From Bacteroidales bacterium (GTDB lineage Bacteria > Bacteroidota > Bacteroidia > Bacteroidales > CG2-30-32-10): a stretch of 31,760 bases of DNA. A program made the translations under genes and the position numbers. The stretch lies in assembly GCA_035421345.1 (NCBI GenBank), contig DAOLWT010000001.1, positions 1 through 31,760 on the forward strand. Reading direction: 5' to 3'. This document shows positions 7,454-21,100 of the stretch, one piece after another; the first letter of the stretch is position 1; every line of letters begins with the position of its first letter. Below the pieces are notes generated by a model. That model ran no database searches and was not told the origin of the DNA. It saw only the letters and a list, made by a program, of their open reading frames with translations.

Positions 7454-7915
7454 ATGAAATTACATAAGTTTTTGTTTATCTTACTTATAATAATAAATTT
7501 TTCATCCTGTTCAAATAATTATTATAACTCATATGAGATAAAAAATATTACATTTAAAATAACCCAAATAAATTTATTAGGGTTTACAGAATATTTTTAT
7601 GTTATAAATAATAAACAGATAACAATAGATTCAATAATAAATGAAACTGATTTTAAAAGAGTTTATACAAAAAAGATTAATATAAATGAATATAAAAAGA
7701 TTGCAGTTATTTTGCCAGAATTAATAAAATTAGATAGTGTATATATAAATGATTCTGTTATAGATGGAATTGATGATGAAATTTGTATTTATAACAAAAA
7801 CAAAGAAATAAAAAAAATAACAATTAGTAATAGTAAAATATCGATAATAGATTCTTTGTATTTTAATATAAATAAATTAATAATAAATAAATCATTAATG
7901 TTGTTATCTCTTTGA
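7454..7915 (+). CDS. Putative immunity lipoprotein 4
   Basis: Lipobox FSSC after a hydrophobic stretch; first sizeable ORF after toxin 4. Confidence 0.55.
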   Translation: MKLHKFLFILLIIINFSSCSNNYYNSYEIKNITFKITQINLLGFTEYFYVINNKQITIDSIINETDFKRVYTKKININEYKKIAVILPELIKLDSVYINDSVIDGIDDEICIYNKNKEIKKITISNSKISIIDSLYFNINKLIINKSLMLLSL

Positions 7916-7950
7916 AGGAGATCGTTTAACGCATTGTGTCCCTCAGTTCC

Positions 7951-7988
7951 CTCCGTTCGCGCGCGTTTTAGCGTAGCGTAACGCGTGC
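7951..7988 (+). repeat. REP, inverted partner of 8969-8997
   Basis: CTCCGTTCGCGCGCGTTT[TAGCGTAGC]GTAACGCGTGC equals the reverse complement of 8969-8997 plus a 9-nt loop insertion. Confidence 0.9.
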
Positions 7989-8058
7989 AGAAATAATAAA
8001 ATTAAAGCGCCAAATAATACCGAAAGCATATATTTAATGGTCCAATAAATGAACTCTA

Positions 8059-12835: not shown

Positions 12836-13831
12836 ATGTTACCTCCTTTCAAAAATAGCATATTTGAAATTAATAACGAAAACGATTTTAATGAATTAGC
12901 CATTCGTGTTTTTCAATATCAATATCAACATATTGAAATTTATACCCGTTATGTTAATCAAATTTGTAAGGATATACGTAATATTACGCATTATTCACAA
13001 ATTCCTTTTCTTCCTATTTCTTTTTTCAGAACTCACCCTATTCTTGCAACAAATAAACCTGCCGAAGCCGTATTTGAAAGCAGTGGTACTACGGGTTCTA
13101 TAAAAAGCCATCATTACGTTAGCGACCTTAGTATATATAAAAAAAGTGCCCTCCTTTCGTTCGAAAGATGCTATGGCGCTGTTTCCGATTATATTTTTTT
13201 AGCTCTATTGCCTTCTTATTTAGAAAGAAATAATTCTTCGTTAGTGTGGATGGCTCGTCTTTTTATGCAGGAAAGTAAATATAGTTCCGACTGCGGATTT
13301 TACTTAAATAATTACGATGAATTGCTTGAAAAACTTAAAAAATTATCGGAAAATAATTCCCCAAAAATAATTTTATTAGGCGTTTCTTATGCCTTGTTAG
13401 ATTTAGCAGAAAAAATGAAATCCCCTTTAAATAACGTTATTGTTATGGAAACCGGCGGTATGAAAGGGCAAAGAAAGGAAATAATAAGGGAAGAATTACA
13501 TGAAATTTTATGTCAAAAAATGGGTGTTAATTTTATTCATTCCGAATATGGCATGACTGAGCTTTTATCGCAAGCCTATTCCAAGGGGAAAGGTATTTAC
13601 AAAGCACCTCCCTGGATGAAAGTATTGATTCGCGAATTGAATGATCCTTTCTCGTATGTAGCAAGCGGCCGACAAGGAGGAATTAATATAATTGATTTGG
13701 CGAATATCAATTCCTGTTCTTTTATTTCTACAGAAGATATAGGGAAAACAACCTCCGATGGCTGTTTTGACGTATTAGGGCGTTTTGATTATAGCGATAC
13801 CCGAGGATGTAATTTAATGATACTCGATTAG
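12836..13831 (+). CDS. LuxE-like acyl-protein synthetase / acyl transferase (ANL superfamily)
   Basis: IPFLPISFF, FESSGTTG, METGGMKG, HSEYGMTELLSQAY, GGINIIDLAN, GRFDYSDTRGCN. Confidence 0.85.
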   Translation: MLPPFKNSIFEINNENDFNELAIRVFQYQYQHIEIYTRYVNQICKDIRNITHYSQIPFLPISFFRTHPILATNKPAEAVFESSGTTGSIKSHHYVSDLSIYKKSALLSFERCYGAVSDYIFLALLPSYLERNNSSLVWMARLFMQESKYSSDCGFYLNNYDELLEKLKKLSENNSPKIILLGVSYALLDLAEKMKSPLNNVIVMETGGMKGQRKEIIREELHEILCQKMGVNFIHSEYGMTELLSQAYSKGKGIYKAPPWMKVLIRELNDPFSYVASGRQGGINIIDLANINSCSFISTEDIGKTTSDGCFDVLGRFDYSDTRGCNLMILD

Positions 13832-13860
13832 GCTATTTTCCGAAATTTCCTTACTCCGTT

Positions 13861-15246
13861 TTATTTTCTGAATTTTTTAATAAAATCTTCCACTTCGGGA
13901 ACGCCTCCTTGGTAAACCAAATAACCATTATATGGTTCACGAGGGGTAATTTCATCGTTAATTGGGGTAAGCATAATTTCTCTCACCTTTTCCAGATCGT
14001 TGGTTTGGCCTAATGCCCATCCTAATTTAATATAGGCTGTTTCGGGTAACATATTTTCGGCAGGAATAATTCCTTTTGCCATAAGGTCGCGACCGGTATC
14101 ATATACAAACATATGCACGTATCCCCAAAGGGTTTGTAAGGTCATATAGATAGCAACTCCTTTTTTTGTTGCTCTTTCAATAGCCGGATAAATAGGTTTG
14201 TTAACATGCCCTAAGCCGGTTCCAATAATAATAATTCCTTTATATCCATTGTCTACCATAGAATCGATCATGTCGGGATTCATATTGGTATAATAATAAA
14301 GCATGCCCACTTTTTCTTCGAAATAAGGTAGAATCTTTACATTACGGTCTTTCCGACGAGGATTATATAAGCTTTTAATTGGTTTAACCCCTTCTCTAGT
14401 AACCGTAGCTAAAGGAGTATCACCAATAGTACGGAATGTTGAACGATACGAAGAATGCATTTTTCTTACACGGGTACCTCTGTGAAGAAACCCATATTCA
14501 TCGGATGTTGGACCATACATACAAACCATTACTTCTGCAATATCGCCGTGTCCGGCAGCGGTTGTTGCATGCATAAGATTAAGGGCCGCATCGGAAGAAG
14601 GTCTATCTGATGATCGTTGCGAACCTACCAAAACAATGGGAATAGGTGAATTCTGAACCATAAATGTTAAGGCAGCAGAAGTATAATGCAAGGTATCGGT
14701 ACCATGACCTATTACAATGCCGTCAATACCATTTTCTATTTCTTTTCCAATAGCAATGGCTAATTTCTTATATTGTTCCGGACCCATATTTTCGCTAAAA
14801 ACAGCAAAAACTTTTTCGGTAGTCAAATTACAAATATCGGCTAATTCAGGAACGGCACCATACAGTTCTCCCGGACTAAAAGCGGGAATAACGGCACCTG
14901 TTCTGTAATCGAGGCGCGAAGCAATAGTTCCACCGGTTCCTATGAGCTTTACTTTAGGTAAGCCTTCGGTATAGGGGAATTCTTTTTCAGGAATTTTATA
15001 ATTGGCTTTTTTATAACCAGTTTCTTTCATGTTGATAACGGTACTTGTGTCAATTCCAATATTATAACCAGTAGGAATTTTCAGTACGATATGCGTATCG
15101 TCATCATTTTCGGAACGAGGTAAAATAGTACCAATAAAACCCCCTCTCTTTGTTTCTATTTCTGCTTGTCCCCAAACTCGAACATTGAATTTTTTCAGCA
15201 TTTCTAATGCTGTTCCTTTATATCCTTGAAAAAAATCTTCTAACAT
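13861..15246 (-). CDS. gatD: Glu-tRNA(Gln) amidotransferase subunit D (archaeal-type)
   Basis: GatD-specific N-domain (GTILPRSE...HIVLKIPTGYNIG) plus asparaginase core GTGGTIASR, HGTDT, GSQRSSDRPSSD and RKMHSSYR. ATG at 15246 is preferred over TTG at 15270. Confidence 0.9.
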   Translation of the reverse strand: MLEDFFQGYKGTALEMLKKFNVRVWGQAEIETKRGGFIGTILPRSENDDDTHIVLKIPTGYNIGIDTSTVINMKETGYKKANYKIPEKEFPYTEGLPKVKLIGTGGTIASRLDYRTGAVIPAFSPGELYGAVPELADICNLTTEKVFAVFSENMGPEQYKKLAIAIGKEIENGIDGIVIGHGTDTLHYTSAALTFMVQNSPIPIVLVGSQRSSDRPSSDAALNLMHATTAAGHGDIAEVMVCMYGPTSDEYGFLHRGTRVRKMHSSYRSTFRTIGDTPLATVTREGVKPIKSLYNPRRKDRNVKILPYFEEKVGMLYYYTNMNPDMIDSMVDNGYKGIIIIGTGLGHVNKPIYPAIERATKKGVAIYMTLQTLWGYVHMFVYDTGRDLMAKGIIPAENMLPETAYIKLGWALGQTNDLEKVREIMLTPINDEITPREPYNGYLVYQGGVPEVEDFIKKFRK

Positions 15247-15256
15247 GCTATAATTT

Positions 15257-17227
15257 TTAATTTGCTGCAATAACTTTGCTTAATTCATTTAACGCTATAT
15301 TTCCGATAGCACTTTTTCTAAGTTCTCCCATTATCCAGTGTTTCTCCACTTCTACTTCTTTTTTTCTTCTAATCGTATTGAATTTATCTTTCAATAAAGA
15401 GATAGTTGAAATAATTTCTTTTTTATCGATTCTTTTAAATTGAATGGTAACCAATGCCGATTCAAAATCTATTTGAGGGTGCTCATAAATAACCGGAAGT
15501 ATTCGTTTTGCTATTTGAATATCTAATTTTTCATCTTTTATAAACTTAAAAAGATCGTAAATTTTTTCGTAATTAAATTTAGAGGCAGGAACATAATGAC
15601 CTTCTACAAATTTTAATTTATGTCCGAAGAAAGTACCTATAAATTTAGGGTCATACCCTAGTTCTGTACAAATTTTTTCAATTAGCGGGAAGTGATTTCG
15701 TTTAAAAATAAAGGTATATGTATCTTCCGGCACATTCCATTTTTTCAACTGATTATATCGTTCAATAATATCGTGAGGAAGATTTTTGCTAAGTTTATCT
15801 AAATAATCGTTTGGTAAAGGAATCGGCTTCGAGTCGGTATCTGGATACATTCGGTCGGCACCGGGAAGTACTCTTTCAAAAATAGTAGTTCCGTCTTTAA
15901 ACGATTTTCTGGTTTCGGGAGGAACGCCGGCAAATGCCATTTTACAACGTTCTTCAATGGTTTCTAAGGCAGTGGGAATATCTTCTTCGGGACCCCAGAA
16001 AATAAGTTGAGCATCCTCGTCGGCACTTTTTAGCAGTTTTTTTATTTTAATAAAATCGGCTTCATTTACAATAGGGGTAAATTCTTCCGAATGAGTCATA
16101 TTAGGCTTTTCGAGACAAGCAATTACTTTTAGTCGATCGCTAATTTCGTGGGCAAACATTTTATCGGGTTGTGTAAAATGAGACAGAATTCCCTGAAAAT
16201 GGGGAAGGTTAACAGCTACTAAAATATTTTTTTCTTTTTTAGCTTCTTTCAAAGGAGCATAAGAACCTTTAACCATGGTATATGGAATTACGACCTGGTT
16301 TATTTTCCAGTTTTTAGGTTCTGAATATCTATTGTTTAATATTTTTTTAATGTTTAACAATGCCCACTGACGGAAACATTCATTATGCGTTAATTCAGGA
16401 ATCCATTTGGTGTGAGCCACCCCTTTTATTTCTACACGGGTTCCTCCTTTACAGCTCACATTAACATCTTCTCTACCGGCACCAATACCAACTCTTACCA
16501 ATCCGGTACTTCTATTTAAAAAACGAATATAATCGCAGGCTTCTTTTACCTCATTGGGGTTAGTCATATCGGGATAAGTAACTGTTTCTATGAGAGGCAT
16601 TCCCAATCGATCCGTTTTATATATGCGGGTATGTTTAATATCGCTAACTTCACGACAAGAGTCTTCTTCTAAACTTAATTGGATTAAACGTACTTTTTTA
16701 TTTTTTAATGGTATTTCACCTTCTACTCCAATAATCGCGGTACGTTGAAAACCGGCAGGAATACTGCCATCGAGATACTGTTTACGGGTTATATGAACTT
16801 CTCCAACAATTTTAAGTTTAGATAAAAAAGATATTTTAATTGCATTTTCCAACGCTTCTCTGTTGAGCGGGAAAGGGGGTGTATCATCTACATCGTAAGT
16901 ACACGTTGTTTCATTTTTTATCCGATACACAATATTTTTACGGGTTTTAAATTCCATTAAAGCGGTCCCGTCGTACTCGCCTAGTTCGCTTAATGTAGGG
17001 CGCATATGTCGAATAACTTCGGCGTCGTACACCTCATTATCATTAAAACAACCGGCAGGACAACGACAAAACAATTTTTGTTTCGTATAAATTTGCTGGT
17101 GAACTTCCAGTCCCGACATAAAACCTATTTCATCGTATGTTTGTTGTGTTGCTTTTTTTCGAGGAACATATCCAATGGCTTGTTTCGTTTCGTTGTAATT
17201 CTGTAAAGAATCAAATTTATTTTTCAT
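15257..17227 (-). CDS. gatE: Glu-tRNA(Gln) amidotransferase subunit E (archaeal-type)
   Basis: GLEVHQQ..T..KLFC.CP, SELGEYD, DGS...GFQRT, LEED..R, DRLG.PLIE, DVNVS..GG.RVEIKGV, a GAD-sized insertion and LPGADRMYPDTD; 656 aa; adjacent to gatD. Confidence 0.9.
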   Translation of the reverse strand: MKNKFDSLQNYNETKQAIGYVPRKKATQQTYDEIGFMSGLEVHQQIYTKQKLFCRCPAGCFNDNEVYDAEVIRHMRPTLSELGEYDGTALMEFKTRKNIVYRIKNETTCTYDVDDTPPFPLNREALENAIKISFLSKLKIVGEVHITRKQYLDGSIPAGFQRTAIIGVEGEIPLKNKKVRLIQLSLEEDSCREVSDIKHTRIYKTDRLGMPLIETVTYPDMTNPNEVKEACDYIRFLNRSTGLVRVGIGAGREDVNVSCKGGTRVEIKGVAHTKWIPELTHNECFRQWALLNIKKILNNRYSEPKNWKINQVVIPYTMVKGSYAPLKEAKKEKNILVAVNLPHFQGILSHFTQPDKMFAHEISDRLKVIACLEKPNMTHSEEFTPIVNEADFIKIKKLLKSADEDAQLIFWGPEEDIPTALETIEERCKMAFAGVPPETRKSFKDGTTIFERVLPGADRMYPDTDSKPIPLPNDYLDKLSKNLPHDIIERYNQLKKWNVPEDTYTFIFKRNHFPLIEKICTELGYDPKFIGTFFGHKLKFVEGHYVPASKFNYEKIYDLFKFIKDEKLDIQIAKRILPVIYEHPQIDFESALVTIQFKRIDKKEIISTISLLKDKFNTIRRKKEVEVEKHWIMGELRKSAIGNIALNELSKVIAAN

Positions 17228-17293
17228 TCAGAAGAAATATATAATAGTAAATTAATAACAAACAAAAGTAAAAATAACTTTAGTATGATAAAA

Positions 17294-17701
17294 TTAAATA
17301 AGCTGTTTATTTTTTTCTTTTATTAACTTTATTTTTTTCATAAAAAGGAACACATATACCCCACCAAAACATCCCACTACATCAAAAATAAAATCGTTTA
17401 TATCGGCTGTTCGTCCTTTAAAAACGAATGCCTGTAATAGTTCGGTTAATCCGCTGTAAGCTATTCCAATAACTAAAACCAAAGGGATAGTAAAACGATA
17501 AAGAAAAGAAAATTTTTGTTGAAATAAGAAACCTCGTGATAATAAAAATACCAATATAAAAAATAAACCGGTATGTATTATTTTATCGAAATAAGGAATT
17601 TGTAAAAAAGGCCGATTCGAAAGTTGATCGCCAGGAATTCCCAGTACGATTAAAATAAAAATAGCCCACGTAATTCCAGGATAGTTATATTTAAGAAACA
17701 T
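17294..17701 (-). CDS. VanZ-family membrane protein
   Basis: DKIIH, TELLQ and GRTADINDFIFDVVG motifs. ATG at 17701 is preferred because 17706-17734 is a terminator hairpin. Confidence 0.8.
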   Translation of the reverse strand: MFLKYNYPGITWAIFILIVLGIPGDQLSNRPFLQIPYFDKIIHTGLFFILVFLLSRGFLFQQKFSFLYRFTIPLVLVIGIAYSGLTELLQAFVFKGRTADINDFIFDVVGCFGGVYVFLFMKKIKLIKEKNKQLI

Positions 17702-17705
17702 AAAG

Positions 17706-17734
17706 AAAAAAGCCGGAGAAAATTTCCGGCTTTT
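17706..17734 (-). terminator. Intrinsic terminator after gcvH
   Basis: AAAAGCCGGA/TCCGGCTTTT stem followed by a T-run on the minus strand. Confidence 0.7.
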
Positions 17735-17740
17735 CATATT

Positions 17741-18121
17741 TTAATGAACGGTTAGTTCTCTATATTTACTTGCCGATAAGAGCTCATTAACTTGAGCTGG
17801 TTCGGTTAATTTTATTTTTACAATCCAACCTTCTCCGTAAGGATCTTTGTTAATTAATTCCGGATTCGATTCAAGTGCTTCGTTAAATGCGAGTATTTCG
17901 CCCGAAACAGGCATAAACATATCGGATACAGTTTTAACCGCTTCAATAGTTCCAAATGTTTCTTCTTTTTCTATAATTTCTCCAATGGTATCTACTTCTA
18001 CAAAAACGATATCGCCTAATTCACTTTGAGCAAAATCGGTAACGCCTATATAAGCTTCGCCACCTTCTACTCTTAACCATTCATGATCTTTGGTGTATTT
18101 TAAATTTTCAAGTATATTCAT
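17741..18121 (-). CDS. gcvH: Glycine cleavage system H protein
   Basis: [23 protein letters not shown], lipoyl-lysine motif EAVKTVSD and NKDPYGEGW. Confidence 0.97.
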
Positions 18122-18150
18122 TGTATTATTTATTTTTTAAATTATGTTGC

Positions 18151-18158
18151 CAAAATTA
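18151..18158 (-). promoter_or_regulatory. -7 promoter element (TAATTTTG) upstream of gcvH
   Basis: Matches TAnnTTTG in the sprA-gcvH intergenic region. Confidence 0.5.
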
Positions 18159-18196
18159 CATTTTTTAACAAAACAACGCAACAATTTTAATAAATT

Positions 18197-21100
18197 TTAT
18201 TGAGCAAGGGTAAATTTAAGACTAAAACCTGCATTTGTGCTCGAATTTAAGAACATGGAAGGCACATATGGGTTTGTTACAATTTTATCGAAGAAGAATT
18301 TAATGGTAAACTTATCGTTTATTAAGTAATCAGCAGAAACACTAATAGAAATAATACGCTGACCGGTAGAAATCTGATTTATATCTTCCACAATTTTTCT
18401 TAATACTGTTTTATTCGATTTAATAGAAACATCCGATTTAATATTTAAATCGCTTTTTAATTTTTTCGATTTTCCACCATTTAAGCCTTTTACATTTAAC
18501 ACTACATCTTTTATTCTATATCCTAGTCCTACAACTATTTCGTTGCTACTTATTTCCGTAAGTTGATTGTTGGCAAAACTGAGTGATAAATCGCGACTTC
18601 TTTTGAATTCAATATTTGAAATTAAACTATTATTCCAAGTCATATCAATATTTAACAATGGGTTAAATTGTTCGGTTAATACCACTTGTGCAATTTCGTG
18701 TTGAGGAACATAATTACTGCTTAATTTATCTTTAATATCGGATAATCCATCTTGGTTGTTATCGGCATACAAAATATCGGAAGTATAGGCTCCAATGGTA
18801 TATGTAGATTTGTAAGCATGACTAATAGAAAGCGTTTTTAAATATTTTTTAACAAAGGTAAGCTTAGATAATCCGTTATACGTAATTCTCCAGTTTGGAA
18901 TAGGAATATCTCTGAGCGAAAATTTTTCGGAGAATGCATTTAGTTTAACCTTTTCGGGTTCTTTATTGGTATAAGCTGAAAGGAAAGCGGGAATAAGAAC
19001 ATCTTGGGAAGTTGGTCCATATCCAAGCGGATAAACATCGCCGGAAATGGAATCAACCATGGTTAACGAATTTGCTTGCCAATGTTTATTATTTTCGGCT
19101 AATCGCCATGCAATTACCAATCTGTTTTCTTTAAATTTCTCAAATACTTCGTTAGAATGGGTAATCTTATCTTCTTTGTTCATAAATGCCGTAGGCCAAG
19201 TTAAATAAGAAACACTATACGCTCCTTTTTCTATGGGACTATATTCTTTATATTTAGAAGAAACAGGATCCCATTTAATATATTCTGAATGATTTTTAGA
19301 GAATGTACGTGTTGATGTTAATTCAATAATAAATTTACTGAAAGGTTCAATAGTTGCACGTGCAGTAAAATTATCGGTTAATTTGGAAGCAAACTGGCTA
19401 TTAAGCATCGAATCTTTCGATATCCAATTGTTTTCCATAGCACGTTCTCGAATTTGATTAATATCGCCAAAAACATAGCCCCAACCCGGTGATTTCCACT
19501 TATTATCCATACCTAGAATAGATGGGTTATTTACAAAACCGGGGAGATAAGTTCCATTTCCTTGAGAATAGGTAAACGAAACTGTTTTAATGCCCATAAA
19601 GAACTTAAGTATATTGTCAACTATCGATTTAGATATATTCGTTTTATTAGAATCAACACCGGTGCTATCGGTCGATTTTTTAGCTTTAGCAACAATAGTA
19701 GTCGATGATTTTTCTTGGTTCAACTTTTTTAAATAATTAATCTTATTGTATAAATTGGTAAAACTAAAACTTCCGTTAAGTTGTTTAGAGTTAGAGTTTT
19801 CAATAATATTTCCCAGATTAACCGATGAAAGTGGAGCTCCCTGCCAAGAATAAATACCTGTATATTTTGCAGAAGAAGTAACCCAATTAAACCATGAAAT
19901 TTTATTAATAGGAATGGTATAATTTACATTTAAGGTTTGATCGTAATTGGTAATTCTTCCAAAATTTTTCATATTTTCCATTATAGAATCCGTTTTCCAT
20001 CCATAATCGGAGTCTTCTTTATCAATACGGCCATCCGGTTCATCTATTCTGGCATCGGCTGTTGCTGTAATATCGGCTTTCAGGTTTTGTGTTAAATCGA
20101 ACTTCATCCCATAATCTCTTGCCCATGAGAAAGATTTAATATAGGTAGTATCTATTAATATATCGGCTTTTGACTTATTTCTTAGTTTATTTTCGGCATA
20201 CATTCTATCTAAATCGGTTCTGAATGTTAACGATTTAGGCATTAAATAAAAGTTGAAATCTTTTACAATTTTAAGTGGCTTAGCAGAAAAAAACTTGACT
20301 TTAGATAAAGGGGTAAAGTTTTTAGGTGAATTTGTAAATGTATATCCTATAGAACCTTTATATGTTTTTTTAAAGTCATGTTCAATATCAATATTGCGAT
20401 GATATTGTTCTGTATAAGAATAGGTAAAGTCAAGATTTTCAACATCATAAATATGCGATTTAGAGGATGTCCCCGTTTTTTCTTTTTTAACATTTACAAA
20501 ATTTAAACTTTTTCTTACAGTAAGTTCTTGTCCTAACGCTTTTACCGAATCTCTTTCTTCTTTACTGGCATATGTATCAATATCTTCATCAAACAATAAA
20601 TCCGGATTCAGCGGATTATATTGAGGATCGCTTACATTATGGGAATAATCGAAGTGCATTGGAATTTTAATACCCGTTTTTTCCGGTAGGAATTTACCTA
20701 ATTCCAAGCTGGTTGCAATAGCATATTCTTTAATCGTTTCTTTCGATCTTTCGCTAATTTTTTTCTCAATACTTCCGAATCCGGGAGTACTTATTTTACC
20801 GGCCATGGTAGCTGTTCCTAAATCGGCGAGTGTTGCATTTACAGTAGAAGTAGCAGCCCATCCGCCTTTTTCATTAAAATCGGTTAATCTTAACTCGTTA
20901 ACCCATACTTCGGCCGATTTAGCCATTCCGTCATCATTTATTGTACCCGCTGATTTTTTAGGATTTCTTAACCCTATCATAATTACTTTCACGCTACTTA
21001 ATGTAGGCATTCCCACAACTGTTACTTTTCGTCCATTATCAGAAGTAGTGTAAGGTGTTGATAAAGTAACTCCTGACCCGGGAACCCGCATCTGAATATT

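Follow-up and report, generated by a model that had tools for sequence, protein, structure and literature searches.

We analyzed a window of 31,760 nucleotides, which is one entire contig (31.8 kb) of a metagenome-assembled genome (MAG) of a Bacteroidales bacterium from sludge (2.25 Mb in 340 contigs, 82% complete, 1.3% contamination). The window carries gatE and gatD, the genes of the two subunits of GatDE. Reviews up to 2022 call this enzyme archaea-only (PMC2330236, PMC2811023, PMC8007984, PMC9499178). In the bacterial host the pair probably forms a functional tRNA-dependent amidotransferase, accessory to the direct charging of tRNA. The relevant features of the locus are as follows:

15257..17227, minus strand: gatE, 656 aa with ATG start, predicted kinase/amidotransferase and tRNA-binding subunit of bacterial type A
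15247..15256, minus strand: spacer of 10 nt from the gatE stop to the gatD ATG, read from the sequence
13861..15246, minus strand: gatD, 461 aa from the ATG at 15246, predicted asparaginase-type glutaminase subunit
17228..17293, minus strand: intergenic region between vanZ and gatE, read from the sequence

Both open reading frames (ORFs) are uninterrupted and co-oriented. The longest ORF of gatD spans 13861-15270 with a TTG start at 15270. Its homologues in relatives are called at 461 aa, matching the ATG at 15246, and with this start the 10-nt gap reported in an earlier note on this DNA is exact. The order of gatE followed by gatD across a short gap is conserved among relatives.

GatD contains the Pfam domains GatD_N, Asparaginase and Asparaginase_C. 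It passed two NCBIfam equivalogs, NF003217 (496.6 bits, cut-off 310) and TIGR02153 (495.9 bits, cut-off 324), and stayed below the cut-offs of the asparaginase equivalogs. GatE passed NF003107 (470.1 bits, cut-off 456, covering positions 3-618 of the 622 of the model) as well as TIGR00134 (393.8 bits, cut-off 319.55). GatB models reached only 118-124 bits on GatE, with cut-offs of 315-338. An identity as ordinary GatB and AnsA, for which the earlier note had proposed exactly this kind of profile check, is ruled out by these curated cut-offs. The best solved-structure matches of both proteins are archaeal GatDE subunits, namely PDB 1ZQ1_A for GatD (E 1.1e-115) and 1ZQ1_C (E 4.8e-81) and 2D6F_C (E 4.7e-80) for GatE.

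The motifs GGTI (GGTIAS), HGTDT and RKMH of GatD align to their equivalents in 1ZQ1_A and 2D6F_A, and the alignment retains the catalytic Thr nucleophile and the Thr-Asp-Lys triad (roles of the residues according to PMC2330236). For GatE, the Mg ligands His15, Glu157 and Glu184 of the Methanothermobacter thermautotrophicus (Mth) enzyme were reported to be essential (PMC2330236). Their equivalents here are H43, E188 (the second E of LEED) and E214 (the E of PLIE). These columns are invariant in an alignment of 15 bacterial and archaeal GatE sequences and conserved across a set of 132 sequences. The alignment of GatE to 1ZQ1_C and 2D6F_C is unbroken through an insertion domain at residues ~295-430, and a close homologue (P0028) has a Pfam GAD match. 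GatE thus possesses the AspRS-like insertion, which GatB does not have. Its tRNA-binding architecture is kept as a whole and comprises the cradle, insertion, helical and YqeY-like tail domains. Domains, equivalogs and structure alignments therefore agree with the GatD N-domain and motifs and with the GAD-sized insertion of GatE that had been read from the letters. Judged from sequence, both proteins are GatD and GatE with all catalytic residues retained.

Distribution and phylogeny of bacterial GatDE

More than 8000 close homologues were found, many of them already named GatE by NCBI in Bacteroidales or Bacteroidota MAGs, and at least 600 matching stretches occur in genomes of named species. 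Databases thus already name bacterial GatDE proteins. Cultured carriers are Marinifilum flexuosum DSM 21950, Labilibaculum sp. K2S and Perlabentimonas gracilis. The pair is also located on complete chromosomes of Bacteroidales and Cloacimonadales, and carriers among MAGs were found in Acidobacteriota/Aminicenantes, Zixibacteria, Omnitrophota, WOR-3, Planctomycetota and Ignavibacteria. In a sample of the host order (61 genomes from 49 families), the cut-off was exceeded by GatE in 29 genomes and by GatD in 30, with the two genes occurring together. About half of the order lacks GatDE.

The earlier note had left novelty to depend on what is already characterised. In this respect bacterial GatDE is widespread and automatically annotated, but the bacterial form was not described in the papers found: the phrase "bacterial GatDE" occurred in no paper of our literature search, and among the listed papers since 2016 that mention GatDE no title or abstract describes it. 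The present analysis adds the test of the GluRS arginine, the split into types A and B with its tail motif, the co-occurrence with GatCAB and AsnA/AsnB, and the evidence from junctions and RNA libraries for this window.

Several GatE-bearing MAGs carry labels of other taxa. These are L083, L084 and L095 ("Eubacteriales"), L093 ("Lentisphaeria"), L101 ("Saprospiraceae"), L128 and L130 ("Thermotogae") and L140 ("Hyphomicrobiales"). Their GatE proteins share 51-63% identity with the Bacteroidales GatE of the window, and two of them, from L093 and L101, fall within the Bacteroidales GatE subclade. Misbinning or misnaming, rather than gene transfer, may account for the labels.

As the earlier note had proposed, a GatE tree with archaeal and bacterial homologues was built (78 sequences, rooted with GatB, quick LG+G4), in which the sister group is therefore provisional. 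All 37 bacterial rows fell on one side of a branch with an SH-aLRT support of 100. The next row outwards was from Heimdallarchaeota (support 99), followed by a group with a Thorarchaeota sequence, and all labelled rows across that branch were archaeal. The topology, a single bacterial clade beside Asgard sequences, agrees with a single ancient exchange of the gene between bacteria and an Asgard-like archaeon, and with its later spread among bacteria.

Within the bacterial clade, gatE of the window belongs to a subclade with a support of 100, here named type A, which is nested among the remaining sequences, here named type B. The catalytic residues are identical in both types. Two elements of GatE have been assigned to tRNA discrimination, a loop replacing the 3-10 turn of GatB and the tail (PMC2811023). 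The loop (positions 235-250) has the consensus STGkVRTGiGAGRED in type A versus tGkvKRGlGTIRQD in archaea. It contains on average 3.65 Lys and Arg residues in type A and 4.61 in archaea, and position 246 is Thr in type A versus Arg in 96% of the archaeal sequences. The tail has the YqeY-like domain but not the archaeal sequence of the D-loop pocket (LMG..MK..RGK.DG). The pocket reads W-I-M-G-x-L-R-x-x-A-x-G-N-x-x-L in type A versus L-M-G-x-x-M-K-x-x-R-G-K-x-D-G in archaea, and its two diagnostic motifs are distributed as follows:

Tail motif x-G-N: 22 of 23 type A, 0 of 25 type B, 1 of 60 archaeal sequences
Tail motif [RK]-G-[RK]: 0 of 23 type A, 17 of 25 type B, 49 of 60 archaeal sequences

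The region of the tail that binds the D-loop of the tRNA is remodelled in type A only, and this remodelling is specific to the clade, as are the loop changes. The 12 GatE genes from other Bacteroidota classes have type B tails. According to their tails, 8 of 32 Acidobacteriota GatE belong to type A. An assignment to type A or B by bit score against the archaeal model was wrong and was overturned by the tail reading in Acidobacteriota. A third subtype of the tail (..VTGRVIAKIG.RYPGRE..) was observed in three Acidobacteriota genomes, G375, G393 and G409 (loci L160, L157 and L159), in which no GlnRS was found. These genomes could depend on GatDE or GatCAB for Gln-tRNA.

Aminoacylation genes, tRNAs and asparagine synthetases

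The search for glnS, gatCAB and gltX suggested by the earlier note yielded GlnRS (760.5 bits, cut-off 425.8) and a single copy of GluRS in the host. AsnRS (638 bits) and a single bacterial-type AspRS of 597 aa (contig C123) were present as well. Sequence markers that tell discriminating from non-discriminating AspRS were looked for, and no reliable one was found. Neither GatA nor GatB was found by profile search in this genome, which is 82% complete. At the position of Arg358 of Thermus thermophilus GluRS, where replacement by Gln makes the otherwise discriminating enzyme non-discriminating (PMC2978374), the host GluRS has Arg. The same holds for all 31 GluRS of the order that were aligned, and no difference at this position was seen between the 18 carriers and the 13 non-carriers of GatDE.

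Both tRNA(Gln) genes, with the anticodons CTG (contig C81) and TTG (contig C162), have a U1-A72 pair. The inspection of this pair that had been proposed therefore gave the bacterial form and not the archaeal A1-U72. The tRNA(Asn) has U1-A72, too. The D-loops of the tRNA(Gln) are small (7-8 nt), whereas that of tRNA(Glu) is enlarged (10 nt). The tRNA(Glu) (G000:C51:530-605) was drawn with a G1-U72 wobble as first pair. Altogether 27 tRNA genes, and no tRNA(Asp), were found in the incomplete MAG. ARAGORN also called a tRNA-SeC(TCA).

GlnRS was present in 60 of the 61 genomes of the order. Among genomes with type A GatDE it was found in 41 of 42, namely 30 of 31 of the order, 4 of 4 from other phyla and 7 of 7 further Acidobacteriota. 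All 36 type A genomes tested had AsnRS, and among them no carrier lacking AsnRS as well as GatB was found. Nor did we find a carrier with neither GlnRS nor GatB. No genome of the order (0/61) gave a match of GatB strength, with a model that readily detects GatB in other classes. The distribution in type B was different: GatCAB was present in 13 of 13 type B genomes tested, GlnRS and GatB occurred together in all 12 genomes of the other Bacteroidota classes, and a Phycisphaerales chromosome carried type B GatE and GatB and no GlnRS.

In Acidobacteriota, GlnRS was found in 27 of 31 genomes with bacterial GatDE of either type compared to 78 of 119 others. The GlnRS frames of this phylum are often 200-300 residues or more above the usual ~560-600 aa. 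They reach ~830 aa in G364, G431, G444, G492 and G504, more than 1100 aa in G421 and G435, and 1886 aa in G452. This recalls the GlnRS of Deinococcus with its appended YqeY-like domain (PMC1865053).

Asparagine synthetases were scarce in carriers of the order:

AsnA: 5 of 31 GatDE carriers, 15 of 30 non-carriers
Strict AsnB (NF006949): 3 of 31 GatDE carriers, 20 of 30 non-carriers
AsnA or strict AsnB: 7 of 31 GatDE carriers, 22 of 30 non-carriers

With one genome per family (outside the host family), AsnA or strict AsnB was present in 5 of 19 carriers and 22 of 29 non-carriers. Naive Fisher tests, in which kinship is ignored, gave p values of ~1e-4 and ~1e-3. Either GatDE or a synthetase was found in 53 of the 61 genomes; 7 had both and 8 had neither. 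The host family had strict AsnB in 0 of 13 and AsnA in 2 of 13 genomes, with GatD in 11 of 12 sampled relatives and in the host genome. Complete type A chromosomes of Cloacimonadales and Bacteroidales were likewise without AsnA and AsnB.

In the host genome itself, at its completeness of 82%, no AsnA or strict AsnB was detected. It carries two long AsnB-like genes, which reached 322 and 337 bits versus the AsnB equivalog cut-off of 499 and which both pass the broad model TIGR01536. One of these genes (631-635 aa) heads a polysaccharide-export cluster (G000:C7:10666-19792, L154) with a GT1 glycosyltransferase, a Poly_export protein, a GNVR/AAA tyrosine-kinase-like protein, a dTDP-sugar epimerase, a GT4 family transferase and an SLT transglycosylase.

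Genomic context, expression and selection

Upstream of gatE and on the same strand lie the genes of VanZ, GcvH, SprA (2637 bits), RuvA and malic enzyme. This agrees with the cluster directly behind which the pair had been placed by the earlier note. Contigs of two other metagenome studies (X2 record 24 and X3 record 32) bridge the vanZ-gatE junction, so the coverage check proposed for this site supports its continuity, and a chimera at 17230-17290 is ruled out. The gatE-gatD junction is bridged by DNA contigs as well. The stretch 13000-18500 was present in 14 DNA runs of at least 12 studies (sludge, digesters, wastewater) with 0.68-0.98 of the sampled words. At positions 17240-17251 of the intergenic region, related metagenome strains show several small insertions with collinear flanking genes. 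A region of low G+C content (0.22, versus 0.30-0.39 elsewhere in the window) was seen at 7001-8000.

Both genes were covered by contigs from metatranscriptome libraries. One of these (X16 record 12, 14838-16448) spans the gatE-gatD junction. The adjacent convergent gene (13000-13735) had zero depth in the same run, which argues against a plain carry-over of DNA. A second contig from an RNA library (X15 record 8) is continuous from gatE through vanZ and gcvH, and a transcription of gatE by read-through from upstream is possible. At 17263-17270, about 35 nt before the ATG of gatE, there is a TAnnTTTG-like element, which is a candidate promoter of the Bacteroidota type. In a scan for sigma-70 promoters and terminators, sites were no more frequent than expected by chance.

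Compared to relatives of the same family, dN/dS was 0.03-0.09 for gatE and 0.036 for gatD, at saturated dS and a dN of 0.06-0.27. Both genes are under strong purifying selection.

No tRNA genes were found in the window, and no recurrent neighbour such as a linked tRNA, a second GluRS or another partner was found in ~90 gatDE loci. The two largest "families" of neighbours turned out to be antisense shadow ORFs inside gatE. In two of ~92 loci glnS adjoins gatE. The MAG "bacterium isolate WY4.bin59" (L112:290-4468) has it head-to-head with a type A gatE, ~630 bp upstream, and G113 (G113:C45:508058-512924, L152) has it at a distance of 1.4 kb from a gatE of type B. This is above chance for one named gene, but four aminoacyl-tRNA synthetase genes were inspected. 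The adjacency hints at a link to glutamine.

Putative substrate and comparison with known systems

By homology, GatD would release ammonia from Gln or Asn. The ammonia would pass to GatE, which would use ATP to phosphorylate and then amidate the acidic aminoacyl group on a tRNA. In this organism such an enzyme is accessory, because tRNA(Gln) and tRNA(Asn) can be charged directly by GlnRS and AsnRS. In the genomes tested, type A GatDE is not the sole route to either of the two amide aminoacyl-tRNAs.

As its substrate we tentatively favour Asp-tRNA(Asn), a proposal that we hold with less than even confidence, and the enzyme might act on Glu-tRNA(Gln) in addition. Type A GatDE would then have taken over the job of GatCAB by converting Asp-tRNA(Asn) to Asn-tRNA(Asn), and would supply asparagine without AsnA, AsnB and GatCAB. 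A non-discriminating AspRS would go with this. The scarcity of AsnA and AsnB in carriers suggests tRNA-dependent asparagine synthesis. We lean slightly to asparagine because a metabolic role explains strong selection over long times better than proofreading does, because it explains the remodelled tail and the absence of GatCAB, and because a role in glutamine would be without a visible supply of substrate. A possible history would be that bacteria acquired a Glu-tRNA(Gln) enzyme related to that of Asgard archaea, that the arrival of GlnRS made this enzyme redundant, and that one subclade later remodelled its tRNA-binding tail and replaced GatCAB for tRNA-dependent asparagine. The second of two alternatives in the earlier note, a GatDE repurposed for a different amidotransfer, has gained some comparative support.

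If true, this proposal explains why GatDE is retained without GatCAB and mostly without AsnA/AsnB in Bacteroidales, Cloacimonadota, Aminicenantes and others. Many environmental Bacteroidales that are predicted to be asparagine auxotrophs would not be so, and it would be the first switch of substrate in the GatDE enzyme family.

Several points weigh against an asparagine role. All GatDE enzymes characterised so far act on Glu-tRNA(Gln), and modelling predicted that the insertion domain of GatE, which is retained here, would collide with AspRS within a transamidosome (PMC2330236). A shift of the catalytic core towards GatB that is specific to type A was not found, and the four GatB-like positions were all common to type B and hence uninformative. 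The link to AsnA/AsnB is a tendency and not absolute: Marinifilum and Labilibaculum have GatDE plus AsnA and AsnB, Perlabentimonas has AsnA, and the 8 genomes with neither GatDE nor a synthetase are non-carriers without AsnA and AsnB. In a test of independent pairs on the GluRS tree, the three supported contrasts were opposite or tied and never the same, which was not significant and had too little power. The long AsnB-like paralogues scoring above the TIGR01536 cut-off might be genuine asparagine synthetases, and the host genome is only 82% complete. Furthermore, AsnRS was missing in none of the 36 carriers tested, and the gene next to gatE in L112 and G113 is glnS.

An accessory role on Glu-tRNA(Gln) is only slightly less probable. 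GatDE would then be a canonical amidotransferase reading tRNA(Gln) with U1-A72, and would mop up mischarging by GluRS or serve as a conditional back-up beside GlnRS. This is what the homology to the only characterised GatDE enzymes points to. The difference in D-loop size by which tRNA(Gln) departs from tRNA(Glu) is the classic discriminator, glnS is located near gatE of both types, and bacterial GatDE is enriched in those Acidobacteriota that have GlnRS. Against this, the GluRS of carriers has the discriminating Arg, as in non-carriers. With a GluRS of the discriminating type there is no evident supply of Glu-tRNA(Gln), yet selection on the genes is strong. Moreover, no bacterium is known with both routes to Gln-tRNA (PMC4206432), no genome depends on type A alone, and neither the remodelling of the tail nor the AsnA/AsnB pattern would find an explanation.

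Rather unlikely is an action on another carboxylate, tRNA-bound or not, or a regulatory role. It would account for the fact that both known roles in translation are redundant on paper and that both tRNA-reading elements are altered, with a less basic loop at 235-250 and a changed tail pocket. In addition, with GlnRS and GatCAB already present in type B carriers, the ancestral role in bacteria is itself unexplained. But purifying selection maintains the tRNA-binding architecture in full, and in ~90 loci no conserved neighbour points to another pathway.

That the lineage makes its Gln-tRNA(Gln) mainly or solely by the archaeal route, the first alternative of the earlier note, is very improbable. 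An intact GatDE pair in a genome without GatCAB would be in line with it. However, a bona fide GlnRS is present in the host and nearly throughout the order, GluRS is of the discriminating type, the tRNA(Gln) has U1-A72, and about half of the order does without GatDE. Since GlnRS is present, an essential role in the supply of Gln-tRNA fails.

Despite the fragmented and incomplete MAG with its trace of contamination, an artefact of assembly or binning, or a functionless decaying relic, can practically be dismissed, since the pair shares its 31.8-kb contig with SprA, RuvA and GcvH, is bridged to vanZ in two other studies and present in at least 14 DNA runs, recurs in complete Bacteroidales chromosomes and cultured strains, and has two intact frames with dN/dS <=0.09.

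GatDE counts as a signature protein of archaea, and its supposed restriction to them feeds arguments on the entry of glutamine into the genetic code and on why archaea never acquired GlnRS. Here, hundreds of bacterial species from many phyla carry the enzyme intact and under selection, and for the host organism it is found in RNA libraries as well. Its coexistence with GlnRS, a combination that the literature calls unknown in bacteria, is almost universal in our data. Either, then, Gln-tRNA is made by two routes in bacteria, or the substrate has changed in a lineage of GatDE, and both options are directly testable, since cultured carriers exist.

Compared to archaeal GatDE (M. thermautotrophicus, PDB 2D6F with tRNA(Gln); Pyrococcus abyssi, PDB 1ZQ1), the pair of the window has the same two subunits, domain order, equivalogs, GatD motifs and GatE Mg ligands, and its GatE likewise has the AspRS-like insertion and the YqeY-like tail. 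In contrast to the archaeal enzymes, GatE falls into a separate bacterial clade (support 100) beside Heimdallarchaeota. Its tail reads A-x-G-N..L instead of R-G-K..D-G, and the loop on the acceptor side is less basic. The host tRNA(Gln) has U1-A72 rather than A1-U72. Because of GlnRS and the GluRS of the discriminating type, GatDE is not the route to Gln-tRNA in this host.

Type B GatDE (Ignavibacteria, Kapaibacteria, other Bacteroidota classes, Planctomycetota and many Acidobacteriota) shares with the window the bacterial clade, the operon and, mostly, the company of GlnRS. It differs by its archaeal-like tail (LMG..M..RG[KR]..G..V) and by the additional GatCAB in all 13 genomes tested.

GatCAB differs from the pair of the window by an unrelated glutaminase, the amidase GatA with GatC instead of the asparaginase-type GatD. 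GatB reads U1-A72 by a 3-10 turn, whereas GatE has a short loop, and the insertion domain is absent from GatB (PMC2811023). An activity on Asp-tRNA(Asn) is not known from any GatDE. The gene content is similar to that of Deinococcus radiodurans, Thermus thermophilus and Bdellovibrio bacteriovorus, which have GlnRS and AsnRS, lack AsnA and AsnB, and keep GatCAB for tRNA-dependent asparagine (PMC4206432). With the caveats of 82% completeness and of two AsnB-like paralogues passing TIGR01536, the host shows the genomic signs of tRNA-dependent asparagine synthesis: like these bacteria, it has GlnRS and AsnRS, keeps an amidotransferase, carries a tRNA(Asn) with U1-A72 and is without AsnA and AsnB, which are mostly missing in other carriers as well.

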